A stretch of 64,000 bases of DNA from an uncultured Chloroflexia bacterium (GTDB lineage: Bacteria > Chloroflexota > Anaerolineae > B4-G1 > SLSP01), in NCBI GenBank assembly GCA_963751345.1, contig CAVVUS010000011.1:352001-416000 (forward strand), in the 5' to 3' direction. Each line of letters opens with the position of its first letter. The stretch's first letter is position 1. Both the position numbers and the translations under genes were made by a program. Of the stretch, positions 1,302 to 10,755 are shown in pieces. The notes under the pieces were generated by a model. That model ran no database searches. It saw only the letters and a program-made list of their open reading frames with translations, and was not told the origin of the DNA.

Positions 1302-2310
1302 GATGTCTTTCCCAAGGTAAGGGTCGAACATCCCTCTTTGGAATGCCAGGTCCAGGTATGAAGTGACCTTGCGGAAGGTATCTGCATTGCGCACCGCGTG
1401 GTCTCCCGTCTGGTAAGCTACCCACGCCATCGCCGACCAGGAGATGCCCCTGCAGGTAGTTGAAGGGGTCCCGCAGCCGGATCCGCTCGACGATGGTATC
1501 GCGAAGATGCGGGTCGGTGATGGCGTCCCGGTAGACGTCGATGAACCGTGCCTTCTCCGCGTCCGGCATTCGGTACTCGCTCTTCCATAGGGTCGTCATA
1601 GGGGCACAGAAATGCGACAGGTCCTGGGAGGGATCCCCATAGAGGGGCTTCTCCCAATCGACCAGGTAGAGCCTGCCTTCCTCACGGTTCGCGATGAAGT
1701 TCCCCGAGTTGACCTCGGTATTGATGATAGCGGGCCAGCGGTCCTCGACGAAATACGCCTCCCTATGGCGCGCTTCCGCGGCCCAGGCGAGGACGTCGGT
1801 CAGGTAATCCCGCAGGTCGGGATCCGCAAGGTCCGATTCCAGATAGACGGGCAGCAGGCGGCTGCATTCCTCATAGGTCATGGTGAGAGGTCGCGTCTCC
1901 ACAATCAGCGAATGGTCTTCGGGGACGTCGACGGAGTGGATTCGGGCGAAGAGATGTGCGACGTCATCGAGGTCCCGCTCGTAGTCGAGGCTCTCTCCCG
2001 GCAGGTATGACATGGCCAATGCGCCGTAAGCAAGCACCTCACGACTGTCGTCCACGTCATAGGGCAGGGGCGTCACCCCGGTGCCCTTGAGCAAGCAGAG
2101 GGCCTTGTATTCGTAGGCGATCTGGTCGTCTCTCTGAATCTGCGACCCGATATTCACCCGCAGGACCCATCGCCTGTCGCTCTGATGTACCAGGTAGTTA
2201 AGATTGTACTCACCTTGGGCCAAGGGTGTGACGACGAAGGGCGAGGCAGGATCCCAGTGGGGGACCCCTGGCAGAGCGCCCTGGCGCAGGTAGGCCTGCA
2301 CGTCGGGCAT
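1298..2310 (-). CDS. Aminoglycoside phosphotransferase/choline-kinase-family protein, frameshifted near 1450
   Basis: GEYNLNY, VLRVN, INTEVNSGNF and LVDWEKP motifs; C-terminus continues in the 1008-1430 frame. Confidence 0.75.
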
Positions 2311-2342: not shown

Positions 2343-4119
2343 CTACGGTGTGAGTGGCCAGATGATGGGCACCAGCAGGATGCTGACGATGTAGACGATG
2401 GCGGTGAGGAGCAGGCCGACCTTGGTGAAGTCGAAGAACTTGTAGTGACCCGGGCCATAGACGATCAGACAGGCAGGCTCCAGGGGGGTGATGAAGGAGC
2501 AGCTCGCGCTGAGGGCGATCATGACGGCAAAGGTACGCGGGTTCAGGCCAAGACGAAGCGCGCTCTGCACGGCAATGGGGAGCACCAATACGGCGGCCGC
2601 CTGGTTCGACATCGGTTGGGTCAGCAGCATCGTGATGGCGAAGAAGAGCGTCAGCAGGACGATCGGATGGGTGACCCCCAGGAGGCTGACCACCTGCGTG
2701 GCGAGGAACTGGGCGGTCCCCGTGTACTCCATCGCGGTGCCCAGAGCCAACATGCATCCGATCACGATCAGCACCTGCCACGCGACTTCGTGATAGGCCT
2801 CATCGGGGGTGATGCACCGGGTCAGAAAGACGGCTAGCGTGCCGAGCGTGACCGCGATGGGCAGGCTCACGATCCTAAGTGAGGCCAACAGCAGCACCCC
2901 GAGAAAGATGGCGATTGAGATCGGGGCCCGCTGGTGGTTGGGGCGCGTTCGCTGGACCATGCCGATCGTGTAAAAGTGTTCGGGATCGAGTGTTGCGATG
3001 TTGGTGCGGGGCCCCTGTACCAGCAGTTCGTCGCCGGCGCGCAGCCGTATCTGGCTCAGCTTGCTGAACACATCTCTGCCGCGACGGTTCATCCCCAGCA
3101 CCTGGAGGCCGAACCGCTGGCGGAACTGGAGCGTCTTGAGCGTACGCCCGGCTAGAGATGAACCGGGTAACAGGACGATCTCAGCGAGTTGCAGCTCTTC
3201 GCCCTGCAGTCGTGGATCCGACAGCTTTACTTCGGCTTTGAAGGCGAGCCCGGCCATGTCCTTGATGTCAAGGACTCTGCCGCGCTCGCCTTTGACCAGG
3301 AGTTCATCGCCTGCCTTGAACTCGAGCTGTGGCCTGGGCACCAGATACCGGTTCTCATTCCGGATGACCCTGACGACCGTCAGGTCGAGGTCACGTCCCA
3401 GCGAGGACTCGCTCAACGTCTTGCCGATGAGCGGCGAACCCGGCAGGACGATCACTTCGGCAAGATAGGGGCGGATGTCGAAGACCGTCGTGTCGACTTC
3501 GCTGTCCCGGATGGGAATCAAACGATTGCCGATCAAGTGCATGTAGAGGAGTCCGGCGGCGGCGATCGGCAGCCCTACGCCGGCAAGCTCGAACATGCCC
3601 AGAGGGGCCAGACCGTAGTCCACCATCAGGCCGCTGATCAGGACGTTCGTGGAGGACGCGACGAGCGTGATGGAGCTGGCCAGGATGGTTGAGAATGCCA
3701 TCGGCATGAGCAGTTGGGCGCGCGGTGTCTTGGTGCGGCGGCTCAAGTCGAGGACCACGGGGAGGAAGAGGGCCGCCGTGGCCGTGTTGCTGACAAAGCT
3801 GCTCAGCGCCGTCACGATGACCATGACCGCCGGCAGGAGGCGGCTCGGCTTGTTGCCCACGAGCCTCAGGATCCGCCGGCCCACCTGATCTATGACACCG
3901 GTGCGCGTCACGGCTGCGGTAAGTACGAGGAGCCCGAAGATCATAACGGCTGTATCGCTGCCGAAGCCTGCGAAAGTGGCGTTCGGCGGGTATCAGGCCC
4001 GTCAGGCTGAGTGAGAGCAGGATTCCTATCGCAATGATGTCGGCGCGAAACTGGTCGAGCGAGAACGCCACTACGGCGGCGAGGATGATGATGAGGAGCA
4101 GCCCGATCTGGAAGGTCAT
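2343..4119 (-). CDS. SLC13/CitMHS-family permease with TrkA-C domains, frameshifted near 3975
   Basis: SSFVSNTATAA, TLVASSTN, two TrkA-C repeats (GSPLIGKTL, GSSLAGRTL), SNQAAA, SFITP. Confidence 0.88.
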
Positions 4120-5537: not shown

Positions 5538-7400
5538 TTACCGGAGCGACTTTGCGACGCGCACCGATGTTTCCGCCGCCGGCGTCTCAGACGTTGGGCT
5601 CGCACCCGCCAGCTCCCCATGCCAGAGACGCTGCATCTCCTCGCAGGTCTCCAGTAGATCGTCGAGGGTGCCCTCGGCCTCGACGCGACCGTCCTTGAGC
5701 ACGATGATGTGATCGGCGCGGCGCAGTGCCACGCGGCGATGAGAGACAGCCAGACAGGTCACGTCGGGCCGTTCGAAGACGCGCTCCCAGAGGATTCGCT
5801 CGGTCTCGACATCCAGGGCACTCGACAGATCGTCGAATACCAGCAGCTCGGGATCGCGGACGAACATTCGCGCCGCCGCCGTTCTCTGGATTTGGCCTCC
5901 CGACAGTTTGACGCCCTTGGGGCCAACCTTGGTCTCGAGCCCCTCGTCGAACTCGCCGACGTCGTACTCCATCACTGCCATCCGAATCGCCGTCCAGATG
6001 TCTTCTTCCCTCTTATCCATACCCATCAGGATGTTGTCACGTAATGAGTCGCTGAAGAGCCGCGGAACCTGTGCTGTGTAGGCGCAACGTGGCGGCGTGA
6101 ACCAGTTCCCGGCATCCTCGACCGGGACACCGTTCCAGCGGATCTCACCGCTGTCGCGGGGCAGCAGGCCCAGCAACACGCGAAGCAGCGTGGTCTTGCC
6201 GGCGCCGATGCGGCCCGTGACGACGGTAAGCTTCCCGGGTTGCAGCGTCAGACTGATGTCCTCGATCCCATGATCGCTTCCCGGATACCGGTAGCTTAGC
6301 GCTTGGACCTCCAGCGACCGAAGGCGATCTGCACCGGACCTCTCCGGGTAGGCGATGGCGGGGAAATTCCCGTCCATATAGACAGGGCCAAATTCGGTGA
6401 GTGCCTCGGGTGGGGCGCCCTCCATCAGGCGGCTCATCCGTTCGACGGAGACGCCGATCTGCTTGTAGCGGGCCACGAGCAGCCCGGAGAAGGTCGTCAA
6501 CTCGCTGATGCCGCTGAGCATAAAGACAAAGAGCGAGAAGTCGCCGACGGTGAATGTGCCATCCGTCATGGCGCGCCCGGCCAGGATCAGGATCACGCCT
6601 GTCCCGAGGTCGACGGCATTGCGGAACAGCGAGCTCAGCAGCGTCTGGAAGAGCCGGTCCTTGATCGCAACCTTCCGCCGTTCGTCATTGATCTTGTCGA
6701 AGTGCTTGAGAACGCTGTCCTCGGCCGTGGCGACTTTGACGGCCTGCACGGCGCCGAAGAACTCGCCGATGAACCCCGTGACGATCCCGGATGCCTTGCG
6801 GCTTGCCCGGCGATATTGCTCGATGCGCTTGGTGGCGCTGTTGGCGATCACGCCCACGACGACCAGCGGCAGGATCGCGACCGAAGCGATCCTTGCGTTG
6901 ATGGTGAACAGCGTGATGAGCCCCACGACGCCAAACGCGACCATGCCGAGCGTGTCGTTGATCCATAGCGCAAAGAGCGATATTTCGAAGACGTCGCCGC
7001 GGAAGCGGCTGATCGCCTCGCCGGGCGAATCCGGGAGAGCAGATGCGCCCGGACGCCGCAGGATGTGCCTCAGCAGGTTCTTGCGCAGCAAGGTCATGGT
7101 GTGGACGAAGAAGGGCACGTTGGTGCTGACGAGCCCGTAGATACCGAGGATGCTGCCCGCCTGGCAGGCGAAGAGAAAGGCGACCAGAGCCCACACGTCC
7201 CAGTGAACGGCAGCCTGGTTCGACAGCAGGTCGAAAAACGCTTTCATAATGTAGCCGGGGATCTGCCAGAAAGCGGTGAGCACGAGCATCGCTCCGAGGT
7301 TGGCCAACCAGAGCTTCCACCGGAAGCGGACCATATCGAGGATGACGCGCCAGGGAGGCAGCGCATTCACCTCTTCTTTCATCTCCAACGCACCGGTCAT
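5538..7400 (-). CDS. ABC exporter, fused permease-ATPase
   Basis: TMD plus [23 protein letters not shown]; GGAGG before ATG 7400. Confidence 0.92.
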
Positions 7401-7416
7401 CGAATACCTCCACAAC

Positions 7417-9169
7417 TCACGCCAGCATCTCCTCGAGCCCTGTCTGCAACAGACCCGCGAAGCGCGAGCCGGGGTCGGACGCCAGGGCTACCCGGTTGCC
7501 GTATTCCATGATCTGACCGTCCTGGAGAATCATGATGTCATCGGCCCGGTGGACTGTGCCCAGGCGATGGGCAATGACGACGGCTGAGCGGTCCTGCAGC
7601 AGTTTGTCCACCGCGCGCTCGATAAGCTGCTCGGTCGCGGGATCCAGTCTGGAGGACGCTTCGTCCAGGATGACAAGCCCGGGGTCGCGCAGGAAAACAC
7701 GGGTGAAGGCGAGCAGTTGGGCTTCGCCGGCAGAAAGACCCCGGCCTCCCGTTTCCAATCGTGTGTCGAGGCCCTCAGGAAGCGACCCGTACCAGTCCGA
7801 GAGATCCAGTGCCTCGATGACCTCCCGGAGCTGCTCGTCGGAGATCGTGTCGTCGAAGAAGGTCAGGTTCTCGCGGACGGTCGCCTGGAAGAGCTGCACA
7901 TCCTGAGTGACCAGCGCCACGCGTGTACGGAGGTGTCGCAGGTGGGGCTCCCGGATGTCGACGCCGCCCAGGCGGATCGCTCCGACCTTCGGGTCGAAAA
8001 GCCGGAAGACGAGCCGGGCCAGTGTGGTCTTCCCGCTGCCCGTCCTGCCCAGGAGGCCCAGCACCTGGCCCGGCGCGAGTTCGATATCGACATCCTTCAG
8101 CACCGGTTCCTCCTCGATGTAGGAGAAGGAGACGTGATCAAACTGCAGGGCCAACGGCCCCGACGAAATCTGAGCGCCGGGCCCGTCCTGCAGCTTGCTG
8201 CGCACCCTGCTGAGGTCCGACAGACGCTCCGTGGCGGCGCCGGCATTCTGCAGGTTCTCGGCCTGTTGGGTCAGCTCTCGAATGGGCCGGCCCAGCAAGT
8301 TCACGTAGTACACGATCAGGTACGACCGTACCGATGGTGATGAGGTTGGCCCGGAACAGATAGAAGCCGCCAATGATGGCCATGGCGTTGCCGGTCGTCA
8401 TCAGAACTCCCCCAACCGTGCGGACGATCATGAACTTCCGCTCTCGCTTTCGCCAATGGGTAAGTCCCAGATACTGAAGCTTGTAGAGCCCGCGCAGGAC
8501 GAAATCGACGGCACCGGACGACCGTATGTCCTCGGTGCCGGCAAGACGTTCCTCGAGATACCCGAACAGATCGGCTGTGGCCTGGCGAAACGCCTTCTGA
8601 TGCGGAACGGCGAGCCCGCGCACGGCGTTGAGCGCCAGGAGCGCCACGATGGCAAAGACAAGGATCGCGCTTCCCAGACGCCAGTCCTCCAGAAAGAGCG
8701 CCACGACGATGCCCGCGAGCAGGAACAGATTGCCGATCACCCGTATGACAAGCTGCGAGAAGAAGTTCGACAGCTCGGCGACGTCCCCGTCGATGCGCTC
8801 GATGAGCTCGCCGGGACTGGTCTCACCGTGGAAACTCATGTCCAGGTTGATGCAGTGGCGGGCAAGCTCTGCGCGGAGGGCGTTCGTCGCCGTCCACGCC
8901 ACGTTCTCGCCAAAATAGGAGGCTCCGACGGTGACGAACTGCTGAAGGATCGCCAGCCCGATGTACGTGATCGCGGTTGCGATGAGGATCTTGCCGTTGG
9001 CTGAGGACTGCGTCGCATCGATGAAGCGCCGCATGATCTGGGGATTGAAGATCTGCAGTCCGATGCTGCTCAGCAGCAGGACCGTGAGGATCGCAAACCG
9101 ACCCCTCTGCGGTCTTATGTGCTTGGCGAGTAGGTCCCAGTAATGTCTTAGGGGGATGTTCACCTGCAT
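7417..9169 (-). CDS. ABC exporter, fused permease-ATPase (heterodimer partner), frameshifted near 8325
   Basis: TMD in ORF 8138-9169; [22 protein letters not shown] in ORF 7417-8373. Confidence 0.9.
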
Positions 9170-9308
9170 ACCTCGTTGATTGAACGTATGTTCGAGCGCC
9201 TGCCTACTGTAAGGCTTTTGCCCTGTCTGTCAACTGCATCTACTGCATCCGGTGGTGAGAACAGAGGTGTTAAAACATACAATTGGCTACTAAATTTCGA
9301 ATTGCCTA

Positions 9309-9336
9309 TTGACAACTTCCACAGGCTTGGTATAAT
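9309..9336 (+). promoter_or_regulatory. Consensus sigma70 promoter with extended -10
   Basis: TTGACA 9309-9314, 16-nt spacer, TGG-TATAAT 9328-9336; points into a region with no credible gene. Confidence 0.85.
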
Positions 9337-9342
9337 GTAAAT

Positions 9343-9729
9343 ACTCTAAGGAAGGAAGTCCGGGAAGCCGGACGGAGAGCCAAGGAGTAAGGGAGTCCCG
9401 AGTAATTGGATGACACCCTATCAGAACCTTGACCGGTGCAGTGGATGGGCAGAGTCCCGTGGAAACTGTGAAACAGTTTTGGGACTGTCAGGAAGTGTCA
9501 GAGTCAAGGTTATCTCAAAGCGATGAAGCTTCAATGATTAGCAGAGATGTCATCATCCCTGACAGGATGACAGACAAAGCGAAGTCAGCGAAGTGGAGCG
9601 GAGAGAAGTCAAGTAGGTATGCCGGATTCTATCAGGGCGAGTAGAAACTAACGAGCCAGGATAGGAAGCGAAGGCAAACCGAAAGAGCGATAGGGAACAC
9701 AAAAGGTTACTTGGGACCCCTTCTTTTTT
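9343..9729 (+). ncRNA. Candidate large structured ncRNA, family not recognised
   Basis: Own promoter and terminator; purine-rich and ~50% GC; nested complementary segments 9389-9405/9707-9722, 9416-9422/9689-9695, 9425-9433/9503-9511, 9453-9458/9481-9486, 9358-9363/9368-9373. Confidence 0.7.
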
Positions 9730-9737
9730 GCGTACAG

Positions 9738-9774
9738 AGGCGCACAACGGCATCGTCCGCTTGTGCGCCTTTTT
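9738..9774 (+). terminator. Intrinsic terminator on the + strand
   Basis: AGGCGCACAA 9738-9747 / TTGTGCGCCT 9761-9770 followed by TTTT. Confidence 0.7.
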
Positions 9775-9790
9775 GCGTCCGGCGGTACGC

Positions 9791-10393
9791 TCACGCCTCG
9801 ACGTCGTTCTGGAAGACCTCGGGCTTGAGCAGCCCGATGAAGGGCAGGTTGCGGTACCGTTCCCGGAAGTCGAGCCCGTAGCCGACGACGAGACGATCGG
9901 GCAGGTCGAACCCTTTATAGGCGATGGGGATATCGATCAAGCGCCTGCGGGACTTGTCCAGCAACACGCAGACGTTCAGGCTTGCAGGGTCGCGTGCGCG
10001 CAGGTTGCGCAGCAGGTAGTTGAGCGTCAGGCCCGTGTCGATGATATCCTCCACGAAGAGCACGTGACGCCCCGTGATCGATAGGCTGAGGTCTTTCTCG
10101 AGGCGCACCATGCCCTGGTTGCGAGCCTCTGAACTGTAGCTGGCGACCGCCATGAAATCGATCTCTACCGGAATCGTGATCGCCCGCAGCAGGTCTGCGA
10201 TGAAAGGCACCACCCCCTTCAGCACGCCGACCAGAATCGGGTCCCTCCCCGCATAGTCCCTCGAGATGGCGTCTCCGATCTCGCGCACGCGCTGCTGAAG
10301 CTTGTCCGCCGGAATGAGGACCTCGCGGATCCCGTCGGTGAGAACTCCGTAGGCTTCGGGAGGATACCAACCGCCGGTTGTCGGGTCGCTCAT
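9791..10393 (-). CDS. hpt: Hypoxanthine phosphoribosyltransferase
   Basis: VGVLKG, DFMAVASY, VEDIIDTGLTL, VVGYGLD..YRNLP. Confidence 0.95.
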   Translation of the reverse strand: MSDPTTGGWYPPEAYGVLTDGIREVLIPADKLQQRVREIGDAISRDYAGRDPILVGVLKGVVPFIADLLRAITIPVEIDFMAVASYSSEARNQGMVRLEKDLSLSITGRHVLFVEDIIDTGLTLNYLLRNLRARDPASLNVCVLLDKSRRRLIDIPIAYKGFDLPDRLVVGYGLDFRERYRNLPFIGLLKPEVFQNDVEA

Positions 10394-10755
10394 TGGGCCT
10401 CTCCCCCCAGGATCTCCCTGGCTTGCTCGTCAATCCCGTACTTGATCATCATGTCCCGGACATTGCGTCGCTTGAACAGCTTGATGTTGATGTCCGGGTA
10501 GAGCTCTCGCAGGCGCTCGATCTTGTGGTTCTTGATCCTGATAAGCTTCGGACGCAGGGTCGTCAACTCGACATAGAGATCCTGCTGCGGAAGGTAGAAG
10601 TCGGGTGAGAAGGCCTCCAGTACGTTGCCGTGCTCGTCCTTCTCCAGGACGAAGGTGCGTGGCTCGTACTTCCACTCAATCCCATAGTAATCCAAAATCC
10701 TGGCGAATTCCTTCTCCGATGGATGTGCGAAGGTGGGGGTGGGGGCGTCGTTCAA
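10390..10755 (-). CDS. Small PD-(D/E)XK-like protein overlapping the hpt start
   Basis: SEKEFARILD..WKYEP..FSPDFYLP..LYVELT; 4-nt overlap with hpt. Confidence 0.7.
   Translation of the reverse strand: MNDAPTPTFAHPSEKEFARILDYYGIEWKYEPRTFVLEKDEHGNVLEAFSPDFYLPQQDLYVELTTLRPKLIRIKNHKIERLRELYPDINIKLFKRRNVRDMMIKYGIDEQAREILGGEAQ

Follow-up and report, generated by a model that had tools for sequence, protein, structure and literature searches.

A stand-alone gene for a large structured non-coding RNA, usually convergent with hpt, in Anaerolineae of the phylum Chloroflexota

The stretch of DNA analysed in this study (the window; 64,000 nucleotides (nt) of contig CAVVUS010000011.1 from an uncultured Chloroflexia bacterium) almost certainly carries, at positions 9343-9729 of the plus strand, a stand-alone and independently transcribed gene for a structured non-coding RNA (ncRNA) of about 387 nt, that is, roughly 385 bases. 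The gene makes no protein and has a promoter and a terminator of its own. The RNA, referred to here as the Anaerolineae RNA, belongs to a family in which an optional 5' hairpin (P1) precedes a closing helix (P2/P3), and the latter leads to a four-way junction bearing three variable arms (A, B and C). An earlier note, made from the letters of the window without database searches, had proposed a multi-branched RNA gene of no recognisable family at this place. The features of the locus are given below; the pairings are those of the minimum free energy (MFE) fold.

9309-9336, plus strand: sigma-70 promoter, with -35 element TTGACA (9309-9314), 16-nt spacer and extended -10 element TGgTATAAT (9328-9336)
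9343-9729, plus strand: ncRNA of about 387 nt, from the predicted start to the end of the U tract; both ends are deduced from promoter and terminator
9343-9388, plus strand: P1, 5' hairpin beginning at the predicted +1, optional in the family; GTCCGG/CCGGAC in the MFE fold
9389-9407, plus strand: P2 5' strand, AAGGG-A(bulge)-GUCCCGAGUAAUU, paired with 9705-9722 in the MFE fold
9416-9422, plus strand: P3 5' strand, CCCUAUC, closing the four-way junction; paired with 9689-9695 in the MFE fold
9425-9511, plus strand: arm A, variable branched hairpin (MFE fold, covarying base pairs)
9513-9606, plus strand: arm B, with base UCUC-AAA-GC-GAU-GA-A-GCUUC (9513-9532) opposite GAAGU-GGA-GC-GGA-GAGA (9590-9606)
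9608-9688, plus strand: arm C, with the flanking conserved junction strands AAGUAGG (9611-9617) and CCGAAAG (9678-9684)
9689-9695, plus strand: P3 3' strand, GAUAGGG (MFE fold, covariation)
9705-9722, plus strand: P2 3' strand, GGUUACUUGGGACCCCUU, where conservation in the family is highest
9721-9729, plus strand: U tract UUCUUUUUU, directly 3' of P2; P2 and the U tract make up the first predicted intrinsic terminator
9731-9777, plus strand: second hairpin, a putative back-up terminator, with 17-nt arms 9731-9747/9761-9777 (82% complementary) and TTTTT at 9770-9774
8138-9169, minus strand: ABC-transporter membrane gene, divergent, upstream of the RNA
9791-10393, minus strand: hpt, hypoxanthine phosphoribosyltransferase, convergent, with its stop codon 61 nt past the U tract; TIGR01203 192.3 bits against 150; Pfam Pribosyltran

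Promoter, terminators and transcripts

The promoter that the earlier note had read on the plus strand, TTGACA-16-TATAAT with an extended -10 TG, was confirmed. It scores 12/12 for sigma-70, with the TG extension in addition, and its -35 and -10 elements are kept in 18/18 aligned homologues of the genus, where 69-83 nt separate the -35 element from the P2 motif; the promoter is also present in diverged family members outside the genus. Positions 8800-10300 hold three promoter-like sites where 0.7 would be expected. Over the entire genome (5.40 Mb, 62.8% G+C) the pattern TTGACA-N16-18-TATAAT occurs at 34 sites and, with the TG extension, at only three, the promoter of the RNA among them. P1 begins at the equivalent of position 9343 in 18/18 aligned genus homologues, at constant spacing from the -10 element, which agrees with the transcription start expected near 9343. 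Moreover, all 18 sequences that were aligned first share GUAAGGGAGUCCCGAGUAAUUGGAUGAC close to the 5' end, and all have AAGGUUACUUGGGACCCCUUCUUUUUU at the 3' end.

At the other end of the gene, the U tract at about 9721-9729 and the second hairpin terminator named in the earlier note are both present in the sequence. A T-rich run immediately follows the P2 3' strand in 34/36 loci (the exceptions being L107 and L110), consistent with a 3' end near 9729, and by a criterion of our own a hairpin with a T-rich tail lies at most 75 nt downstream in 17/36 loci. A simple terminator scan, allowing loops up to 8 nt, found no terminators at the locus; it misses both of them because both loops are longer than 8 nt. 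The promoter and the terminator are conserved along with the RNA, a generic mark of structured ncRNA genes.

Sampled words of positions 9200-9900 are held by 24 public sequencing runs, 22 of which are metatranscriptomes; their shares of the words are small, so the source organisms are relatives of the present bacterium. Four metatranscriptome runs from four studies (a salt marsh, an estuary and two sediment samples, according to their records) were compared in detail, and contigs of relatives were found to cover 9344-9727 in all four, as the earlier note had anticipated for such data. One single contig of 330 nt spans 9400-9717 with 11 differences, one of 314 nt spans 9403-9719 with 12, and one of 307 nt spans 9401-9710 with 22; several of the RNA-library contigs are 300-380 nt in total length. 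In three of the four runs the contigs pass into sequencing adapter right behind 9717, and one contig extends beyond the first U tract (behind 9722) into the apparent second hairpin of a relative. No contig covers 9200-9343 or 9728-9799 in any of the four runs, which counts as no evidence. Word depth in run X11 was 1,230-32,891 for the RNA against 1.6-4.3 for hpt (9800-9895), contig depth being a poor measure of expression. Altogether the contigs fit a discrete, plentiful RNA of the predicted extent, and its high expression, as claimed in the earlier note, is plausible.

Fold, covariation and distribution

The plus strand of 9343-9730 has an MFE fold of -143.9 kcal/mol (z = -7.45), and 0/100 shuffled sequences fold as well; the minus strand of the same stretch gives a weaker fold (-117.1 kcal/mol, z = -5.37). 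P2 has about 18 base pairs and one bulged purine and is extended by P3; it is invariant inside the genus and covaries between families. The three arms vary freely in sequence and length, the conserved parts being the base of arm B and the purine-rich junction strands AAGUAGG, CCGAAAG and GAUAGGG. In most members outside the genus the internal loop above P2 reads UUGGAAGGC / GCCGGAAGGUUA, possibly a run of tandem G·A pairs, and judging from its sequence pattern the internal loop of arm B looks like a kink-turn, although this reading is weak. P1 is absent from two diverged members (L067 and L068), in which the -10 element directly precedes P2.

Most of the helices listed in the earlier note are held by the MFE fold, namely GTCCGG/CCGGAC, the closing helix AAGGG-A-GTCCCGAGTAA with TTACTTGGGACCCCTT, CCCTATC/GATAGGG, AACCTTGAC/GTCAAGGTT enclosing AGTCCC/GGGACT and AAACTG/CAGTTT, and GTCATC/GATGAC. 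Two of them did not stand: TTCTA/TAGAA is missing from the MFE fold, and in place of ATCTC with a nearby GAGAT there is a long-range pairing of UCUC (9513-9516) with GAGA (9603-9606). This long-range pairing is kept in homologues, being 100% paired in the count over 18 sequences and 93.4% in the count for arm B.

Homologues share the fold. When 22 long forms were folded independently by MFE, the 5' hairpin and one closing helix were found in 22/22 and exactly three arms in 18/22. Six diverged members fold alike, with a closing helix round a branched interior, two of them being L067 and L068, which are without the 5' hairpin. Among seven more stretches that were folded, five are single units with the family fold, L109 consists of two tandem units, and in L110 the first unit was obtained. 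The covariation among homologues that the earlier note had named as a check was found in the whole fold, in P2/P3, at the base of P1 and in arm B. The counts are listed below; pairs in which both bases have changed are called double-changed, and the structures counted were mapped from the MFE fold of the window sequence itself, a bias that favors them over the slid controls.

Whole reference fold, 18 sequences: 70.5% of cells paired against 42.6% in the best slid control; 75 pairs double-changed against 35-43 when slid
P2/P3, 37 sequences: 90.6% paired against 60.0% in the best slid control; 18/27 pairs double-changed against 6-10 when slid
P1 base, 20 sequences: 91.1% paired against 55.2% in the best slid control; 6/9 pairs double-changed
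Arm B, 20 sequences: 71.1% paired against 43.3% in the best slid control; 17/28 pairs double-changed

The covariation score of the whole fold was 0.209 against 0.133 in shuffles, with 0/500 shuffles as high, and for P2/P3 the observed value was reached by 0/500 shuffles on each of the five measures; the aligned sequences are related, so these shuffle counts are not probabilities. Across families P2 is 94.6% paired with 9/18 pairs double-changed (one pair is UA in 22 sequences and CG in 14), and P3 is about 90% paired with each pair double-changed across the 37 sequences. The base pairs of arm A covary as well, one pair being CG in 7, GC in 5 and AU in 3 sequences and the next CG in 10, AU in 4 and UA in 4. 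Three pairs of P2 are mostly G-U (GU in 26, UG in 27 and UG in 33 of the 37 sequences), and these point to the plus strand because they would be C·A on the opposite strand. Pairs are therefore kept by compensatory change, as is generally expected of a structured ncRNA.

The RNA is single-copy in its own genome. By BLAST it was found in 15/21 other genomes of the genus, with conserved 5' and 3' ends and a diverged interior, and three of these genomes (G004, G005 and G014) have two copies each. It is missing in 6/21, and five of these six genomes gave no credible hit with a sequence model of the 3' module either; a 24-nt BLAST match in G026 (E 0.0014) was not counted as a member. Scanning one genome per GTDB species with the 3' motif gave 23 loci, of which 18 are of the genus type, with record titles such as Anaerolineae, Anaerolineales and Thermoflexales, and two are diverged forms in metagenome-assembled genomes titled 'Ardenticatenaceae'. 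The other three (L044, L049 and L052, in Rubripirellula and Bacteroidetes records) are without the 5' strand and were rejected as chance matches.

Further searches widened the family. A strict two-strand pattern matched 19/145 genomes of the order, including 3/13 in a genus of a sister family, with 0 matches for the reversed control, and 4/401 genomes of a class-wide sample. The sequence-only model of the 3' module matched 13/151 genomes of a second class-wide sample, adding six further families (f15, f30, f39, f43, f50 and f51), and diverged forms are present in at least 8 further families of the class. In a phylum-wide sample the same model found only the genome of the window and 0/150 others; viral contigs gave no match, and only a single contig was obtained when metagenomes were scanned with the G variant of the 3' motif. 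All these counts should be read as lower bounds, as the probes need a conserved P2 and the search model is a sequence-only model of the 3' module. As far as these samples go, the family is limited to a single class of Chloroflexota (mostly titled Anaerolineae in public records), where it is patchy and dispensable.

Two natural variants of the RNA were observed. A minimal form of 124 nt (L053:3322-3445, minus strand) consists of P1, P2 and a single hairpin replacing the four-way junction, and it keeps the promoter, the U tract, the second terminator and the convergent hpt. On the other side, two genomes (G215 and G255) have two complete RNA units in succession under one promoter. These tandem units belong to family f30 (L109:1204-1827, plus strand; L108/L112 of G255), and L110 of G288 continues likewise after its first unit. 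Each unit has a separate closing helix, with only about 5 nt between the units; the pair in L109 measures 624 nt and is preceded by a long 5' hairpin. The extension of the family past the genus, the short and tandem forms, the usual convergence with hpt and the absence from part of the genus all go beyond the earlier note.

Identity, the neighboring hpt gene and possible role

The covariance-model check against Rfam proposed in the earlier note upheld its statement that the RNA has no recognisable family. In the whole window 0/4227 families of Rfam 15 reached threshold, and a permissive scan of 9200-9850 (E up to 10) returned six chance-level matches, all well under the gathering score. The best of them, S10-Clostridia (20.4 bits against a gathering score of 35.1, E 0.094), overlaps the kink-turn-like motif of arm B; this S10-leader match was taken as chance. 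Ten diverse homologous loci scanned permissively (E up to 0.05) gave no match on the RNA, and nearby only an RNase P fragment and two tRNAs. Membership in any Rfam 15 family, with OLE, ROOL, GOLLD, raiA, HEARO, Chloroflexi-1, T-box and the riboswitches included, was rejected at the gathering threshold. RNase P, 6S, signal recognition particle (SRP) RNA and tmRNA were likewise rejected, the same genome carrying these on other contigs (257.5, 68.4, 73.1 and 152 bits), and ARAGORN found no tRNA or tmRNA in 9000-10000. A bacterial Y RNA was discarded as well: PF05731 (Ro/TROVE) has 0 matches in the genome, which is 93.4% complete, and the Deinococcus positive control was detected.

We rate the RNA as a new class outside Rfam 15, and the family is probably undescribed. 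It is quite improbable that it represents a divergent branch of some known family, overlooked by the Rfam models, or that it was published as a family outside Rfam 15. Distant lineages can indeed escape Rfam models, and supplements and subscription journals were beyond the reach of the literature search; however, neither the window at threshold nor the permissive scans of the region and of the ten loci gave a relevant match, and the four universal RNAs sit elsewhere in the genome. The full-text literature search gave two unrelated papers for the core motifs and no match for an ncRNA of Anaerolineae or Chloroflexota, and two survey papers hold no passage of relevance.

That the stretch is a small protein gene, or the 3' untranslated tail of hpt on the minus strand, is largely refuted and hardly credible. 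An open reading frame (ORF) of 71 codons is present at 9429-9644, and its conservation at codon level, which the earlier note had named as a sign against an RNA gene, was not found: no relative keeps the ORF at the same place and in the same frame, 16/17 homologues have 2-6 stops when read from the same start, and substitutions are shared about equally among the three codon positions (19/14/16, for instance, in the comparison with the closest relative). Among the homologues, the longest ORF varies in location and frame. For an untranslated tail it may be said that the minus strand too folds better than its shuffles (z = -5.37) and that the RNA-library contigs are without strand information. 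Set against this, the conserved promoter and U tracts are on the plus strand, the G-U pairs fit this strand only, and 10/36 loci carry the RNA without hpt.

The gene hpt was found tail-to-tail with the 3' end of the RNA, at 17-105 nt, in 25/36 loci (the most diverged members among them). In one locus (L088) it lies on the other side of the RNA, and in 10/36 it is absent beside the RNA. At the loci without hpt the next genes encode a sulfotransferase, a Zn-dehydrogenase, an ABC ATPase, an amino-acid permease or a GlmU-like enzyme, on either strand, and the RNA reads as stand-alone because these downstream genes differ in kind and strand. For the same pattern, with a convergent downstream gene in 25/36 loci and genes varied in kind and strand elsewhere, a cis-regulatory leader or riboswitch upstream of a same-strand gene was rejected. 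The upstream neighbors also change: members of the genus have an ABC transporter there, L050 and L065 a gene with a cysteine-rich motif at its end, and L111 tRNAs.

The genome has three equivalogs of hypoxanthine-guanine phosphoribosyltransferase (HGPRTase), scoring 222, 199 and 192 bits with TIGR01203, and the one adjacent to the RNA is the lowest. The two further HGPRTase genes stand in tandem (G000:C27:67248-68351; L121:434-1564, minus strand), a pair that is conserved elsewhere in the genus. Across the genus 14 genomes have both the RNA and an orthologue of the adjacent hpt, and 5 have neither; only the RNA is present in G007 and only the orthologue in G010, and in G005, G014 and G180 the two occur but at separate places. 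The association of the RNA with hpt is strong but not obligatory, and it is inflated by kinship. The shared absence may result from one deletion in related genomes, and little weight is given to it. The lasting tail-to-tail position may reflect an inherited ancestral arrangement or, equally, a connection to purine salvage.

Some other observations were made around the RNA loci. In the window, the ABC ATPase ORF (7417-8373) and the ABC membrane ORF (8138-9169), both on the minus strand, overlap by 236 nt in different frames; they may represent a frameshifted fused transporter gene or a mis-set start, and their neighbor at 5538-7415 is an intact fused form. A 121-residue ORF (10390-10755, minus strand) between a cytidylate-kinase-like gene and hpt has no Pfam or NCBIfam match. 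In L067 of G091, an RNase P RNA (3128-3312, minus strand), cut by the end of the locus, lies about 1.3 kb upstream of the Anaerolineae RNA on the same strand, and in L111 of G271 two tRNA genes (1871-1944 and 2038-2110, minus strand) stand directly before its promoter, also on the same strand. Downstream of the hpt orthologue of G180, L116 has tandem units of about 30 nt (GGTGGGCTTTAGCCCGCCATGTGGATGTGA-like, about 1210-1400) that are unrelated to the RNA.

As regards function, the best explanation overall is probably a stable trans-acting RNA with the invariant terminal helix as its docking site; that it is a docking scaffold acting in trans, rather than a cis or antisense sensor, we put at about even chances. 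In such a scheme P1 would protect the 5' end of the RNA, and the closing helix P2 would double as intrinsic terminator, for the P2 3' strand runs directly into the U tract; the second hairpin would serve as its back-up in about half of the loci. The RNA would then act in trans as a free, stable and abundant molecule. The P2 helix, its bulge and the tandem G·A loop above may form the docking platform for a protein or another RNA, and these elements are the likeliest contact with a partner because the tightest sequence constraint lies there. The junction, stiffened by the kink-turn-like bend in arm B, would build a compact core, and the three arms could be spacers or peripheral contacts. Since the gene is dispensable and can be duplicated, its product would count as accessory and not as a core housekeeping RNA.

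Several points weigh against the docking RNA and its novelty. TROVE/Ro and L7Ae-family proteins, candidate binders of the terminal helix and the kink-turn, were searched for and none was found in the genome (93% complete), and the invariant P2 3' strand, taken as 11-mers, has no other complementary site in the genome. The kink-turn-like pattern (C stem, 3-nt bulge, tandem G·A/A·G, NC stem) is present in 19/36 long forms. With the full MAFFT alignment RNAalifold gave no more than 41 pairs, which is why the structures for pair counting were taken from the MFE fold, and for P1 and arm B, each aligned by MAFFT, it gave none; the bias of the mapped structures and the kinship of the aligned sequences, both given above, belong here as well. 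What the RNA libraries provide are contigs from relatives (80-99% alike), with no strand, reads or mapped ends, and DNA may have been carried over into the RNA libraries. The persistence of hpt as neighbor across families while the upstream genes change is unlike a purely trans-acting RNA and may point to action in cis or as antisense. Further, the novelty may be overstated, as unsearched papers, supplements or later Rfam releases could describe the RNA.

Chief among the rivals is an hpt-coupled sensor, in which binding of a ligand (a purine, phosphoribosyl pyrophosphate (PRPP), guanosine tetraphosphate (ppGpp) or similar) or of a protein at the junction would govern the formation of P2; termination at P2 would set the read-through towards the convergent hpt, which would be lowered by polymerase collision or by antisense RNA. 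We consider this unlikely, although it explains the hpt neighborhood: hpt keeps its tail-to-tail position over many families while upstream genes differ, and at some loci the gap is too short to accommodate a second terminator (L111 with 17 nt, L007 with 22 nt). The closing helix is at the same time the terminator stem, the junction strands show the kind of conservation found in ligand-binding RNAs, and one RNA-library contig reads past the first U tract. Tandem units occur here, and some riboswitches occur in tandem. Riboswitch-controlled antisense or non-coding RNAs also exist, for instance AspocR of Listeria and EutX/Rli55. The sensor is weakened, however, by the ten loci without adjacent hpt, whose downstream genes are varied and in part on the same strand, and by L088 with hpt on the other side. 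The RNA and the hpt orthologue are separable, as the genomes with both apart or with only one of them indicate, and a second plus-strand terminator shields hpt in 17/36 loci. In addition, no conserved pairing that competes with P2 was seen in the alignments, so that an alternative fold is not visible, and the RNA has 280-410 nt with freely varying arms whereas the known aptamers for purines, PRPP and ppGpp are far smaller.

A ribonucleoprotein of the RNA with the adjacent Hpt paralogue, in the manner of PyrR, an RNA-binding phosphoribosyltransferase homologue, is very unlikely. Here the two other HGPRTases would be kept for catalysis, which could agree with the adjacent Hpt being the lowest of the three on TIGR01203 (192 against 222 and 199 bits), with its about 24 extra N-terminal residues, and with the genus-wide co-occurrence of RNA and orthologue (together in 14 genomes, both missing in 5, one exception each way); this Hpt also matches PyrR models, if weakly (30.6 bits against a cut-off of 140). 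But it exceeds the equivalog cut-off for an ordinary HGPRTase, its N-terminal extension is not basic, and RNA and hpt are convergent, not co-transcribed; the separate occurrences in G007 and G010, and the single deletion that may underlie the shared absence, also count against it. Improbable too, in our estimate, is a new Anaerolineae-specific large ornate RNA tied to purine salvage, with the junction sensing a purine-nucleotide signal and the terminal helix and terminator converting it to an output. As output, polymerases would read through towards hpt, or the abundant free RNA would release or capture a partner, and the tandem double units and second copies would act cooperatively.

Comparison with known RNAs

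Large, highly structured bacterial RNAs of undiscovered function are few, OLE, ROOL, GOLLD and raiA being the usual list, and those large structured RNAs that were solved have mostly revealed new biochemistry. The present family adds a large orphan RNA from a phylum barely explored for RNA, with members widespread in sediments, marshes and wastewater reactors. It is a well-defined family, with its own promoter, a terminator built into the fold, covariation in four counted regions, and natural 124-nt and tandem forms. Metatranscriptome reads of such RNAs go unassigned, and a model of the family would improve their annotation. The persistent tail-to-tail pairing with hpt provides a concrete lead to function.

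Among RNAs whose output resembles that of the sensor considered above, AspocR and EutX/Rli55 are similar in that a structured element is followed by a terminator with no downstream ORF of its own, and the transcript or the read-through would act elsewhere. This likeness to riboswitch-controlled RNAs would account for the convergent hpt. The Anaerolineae RNA differs from them in having no known aptamer and commonly a second terminator, and hpt is absent in 10/36 of its loci.

In 6S RNA, which binds RNA polymerase, and in bacterial Y RNA, which binds Ro/Rsr, the paired ends form a conserved helix on which the protein docks. The paired ends of the Anaerolineae RNA likewise make a long bulged helix that is its most conserved part, and it ends in a run of U; it may also be abundant, going by the high word depth of contigs, which is a poor measure. 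On the other hand, the 6S RNA of the genome lies elsewhere, and 6S is a rod with a central bubble whereas the Anaerolineae RNA has a four-way junction. Further, no Ro/TROVE gene was found in the genome, and no Y RNA, YrlA or 6S model matches.

With raiA, OLE, ROOL and GOLLD the Anaerolineae RNA shares a length of hundreds of nt, a multi-branched form with conserved junctions and variable arms, a promoter and terminator of its own, a patchy and lineage-limited occurrence that leaves out some relatives, and neighbors that are uninformative on function. It has no match to their models and belongs to another phylum; the raiA paper states that Anaerolineae carry few if any raiA genes. Unlike ROOL and GOLLD, the Anaerolineae RNA was not found in viral contigs. 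OLE, ROOL and GOLLD are larger than it, and ROOL and GOLLD are often phage-borne. The likeness to the orphan large RNAs, and that to 6S and Y RNA, is one of general style only. In comparison with the orphan RNAs, the Anaerolineae RNA has hallmarks of its own: an invariant terminal helix that would at the same time be the terminator, and the hpt neighborhood.

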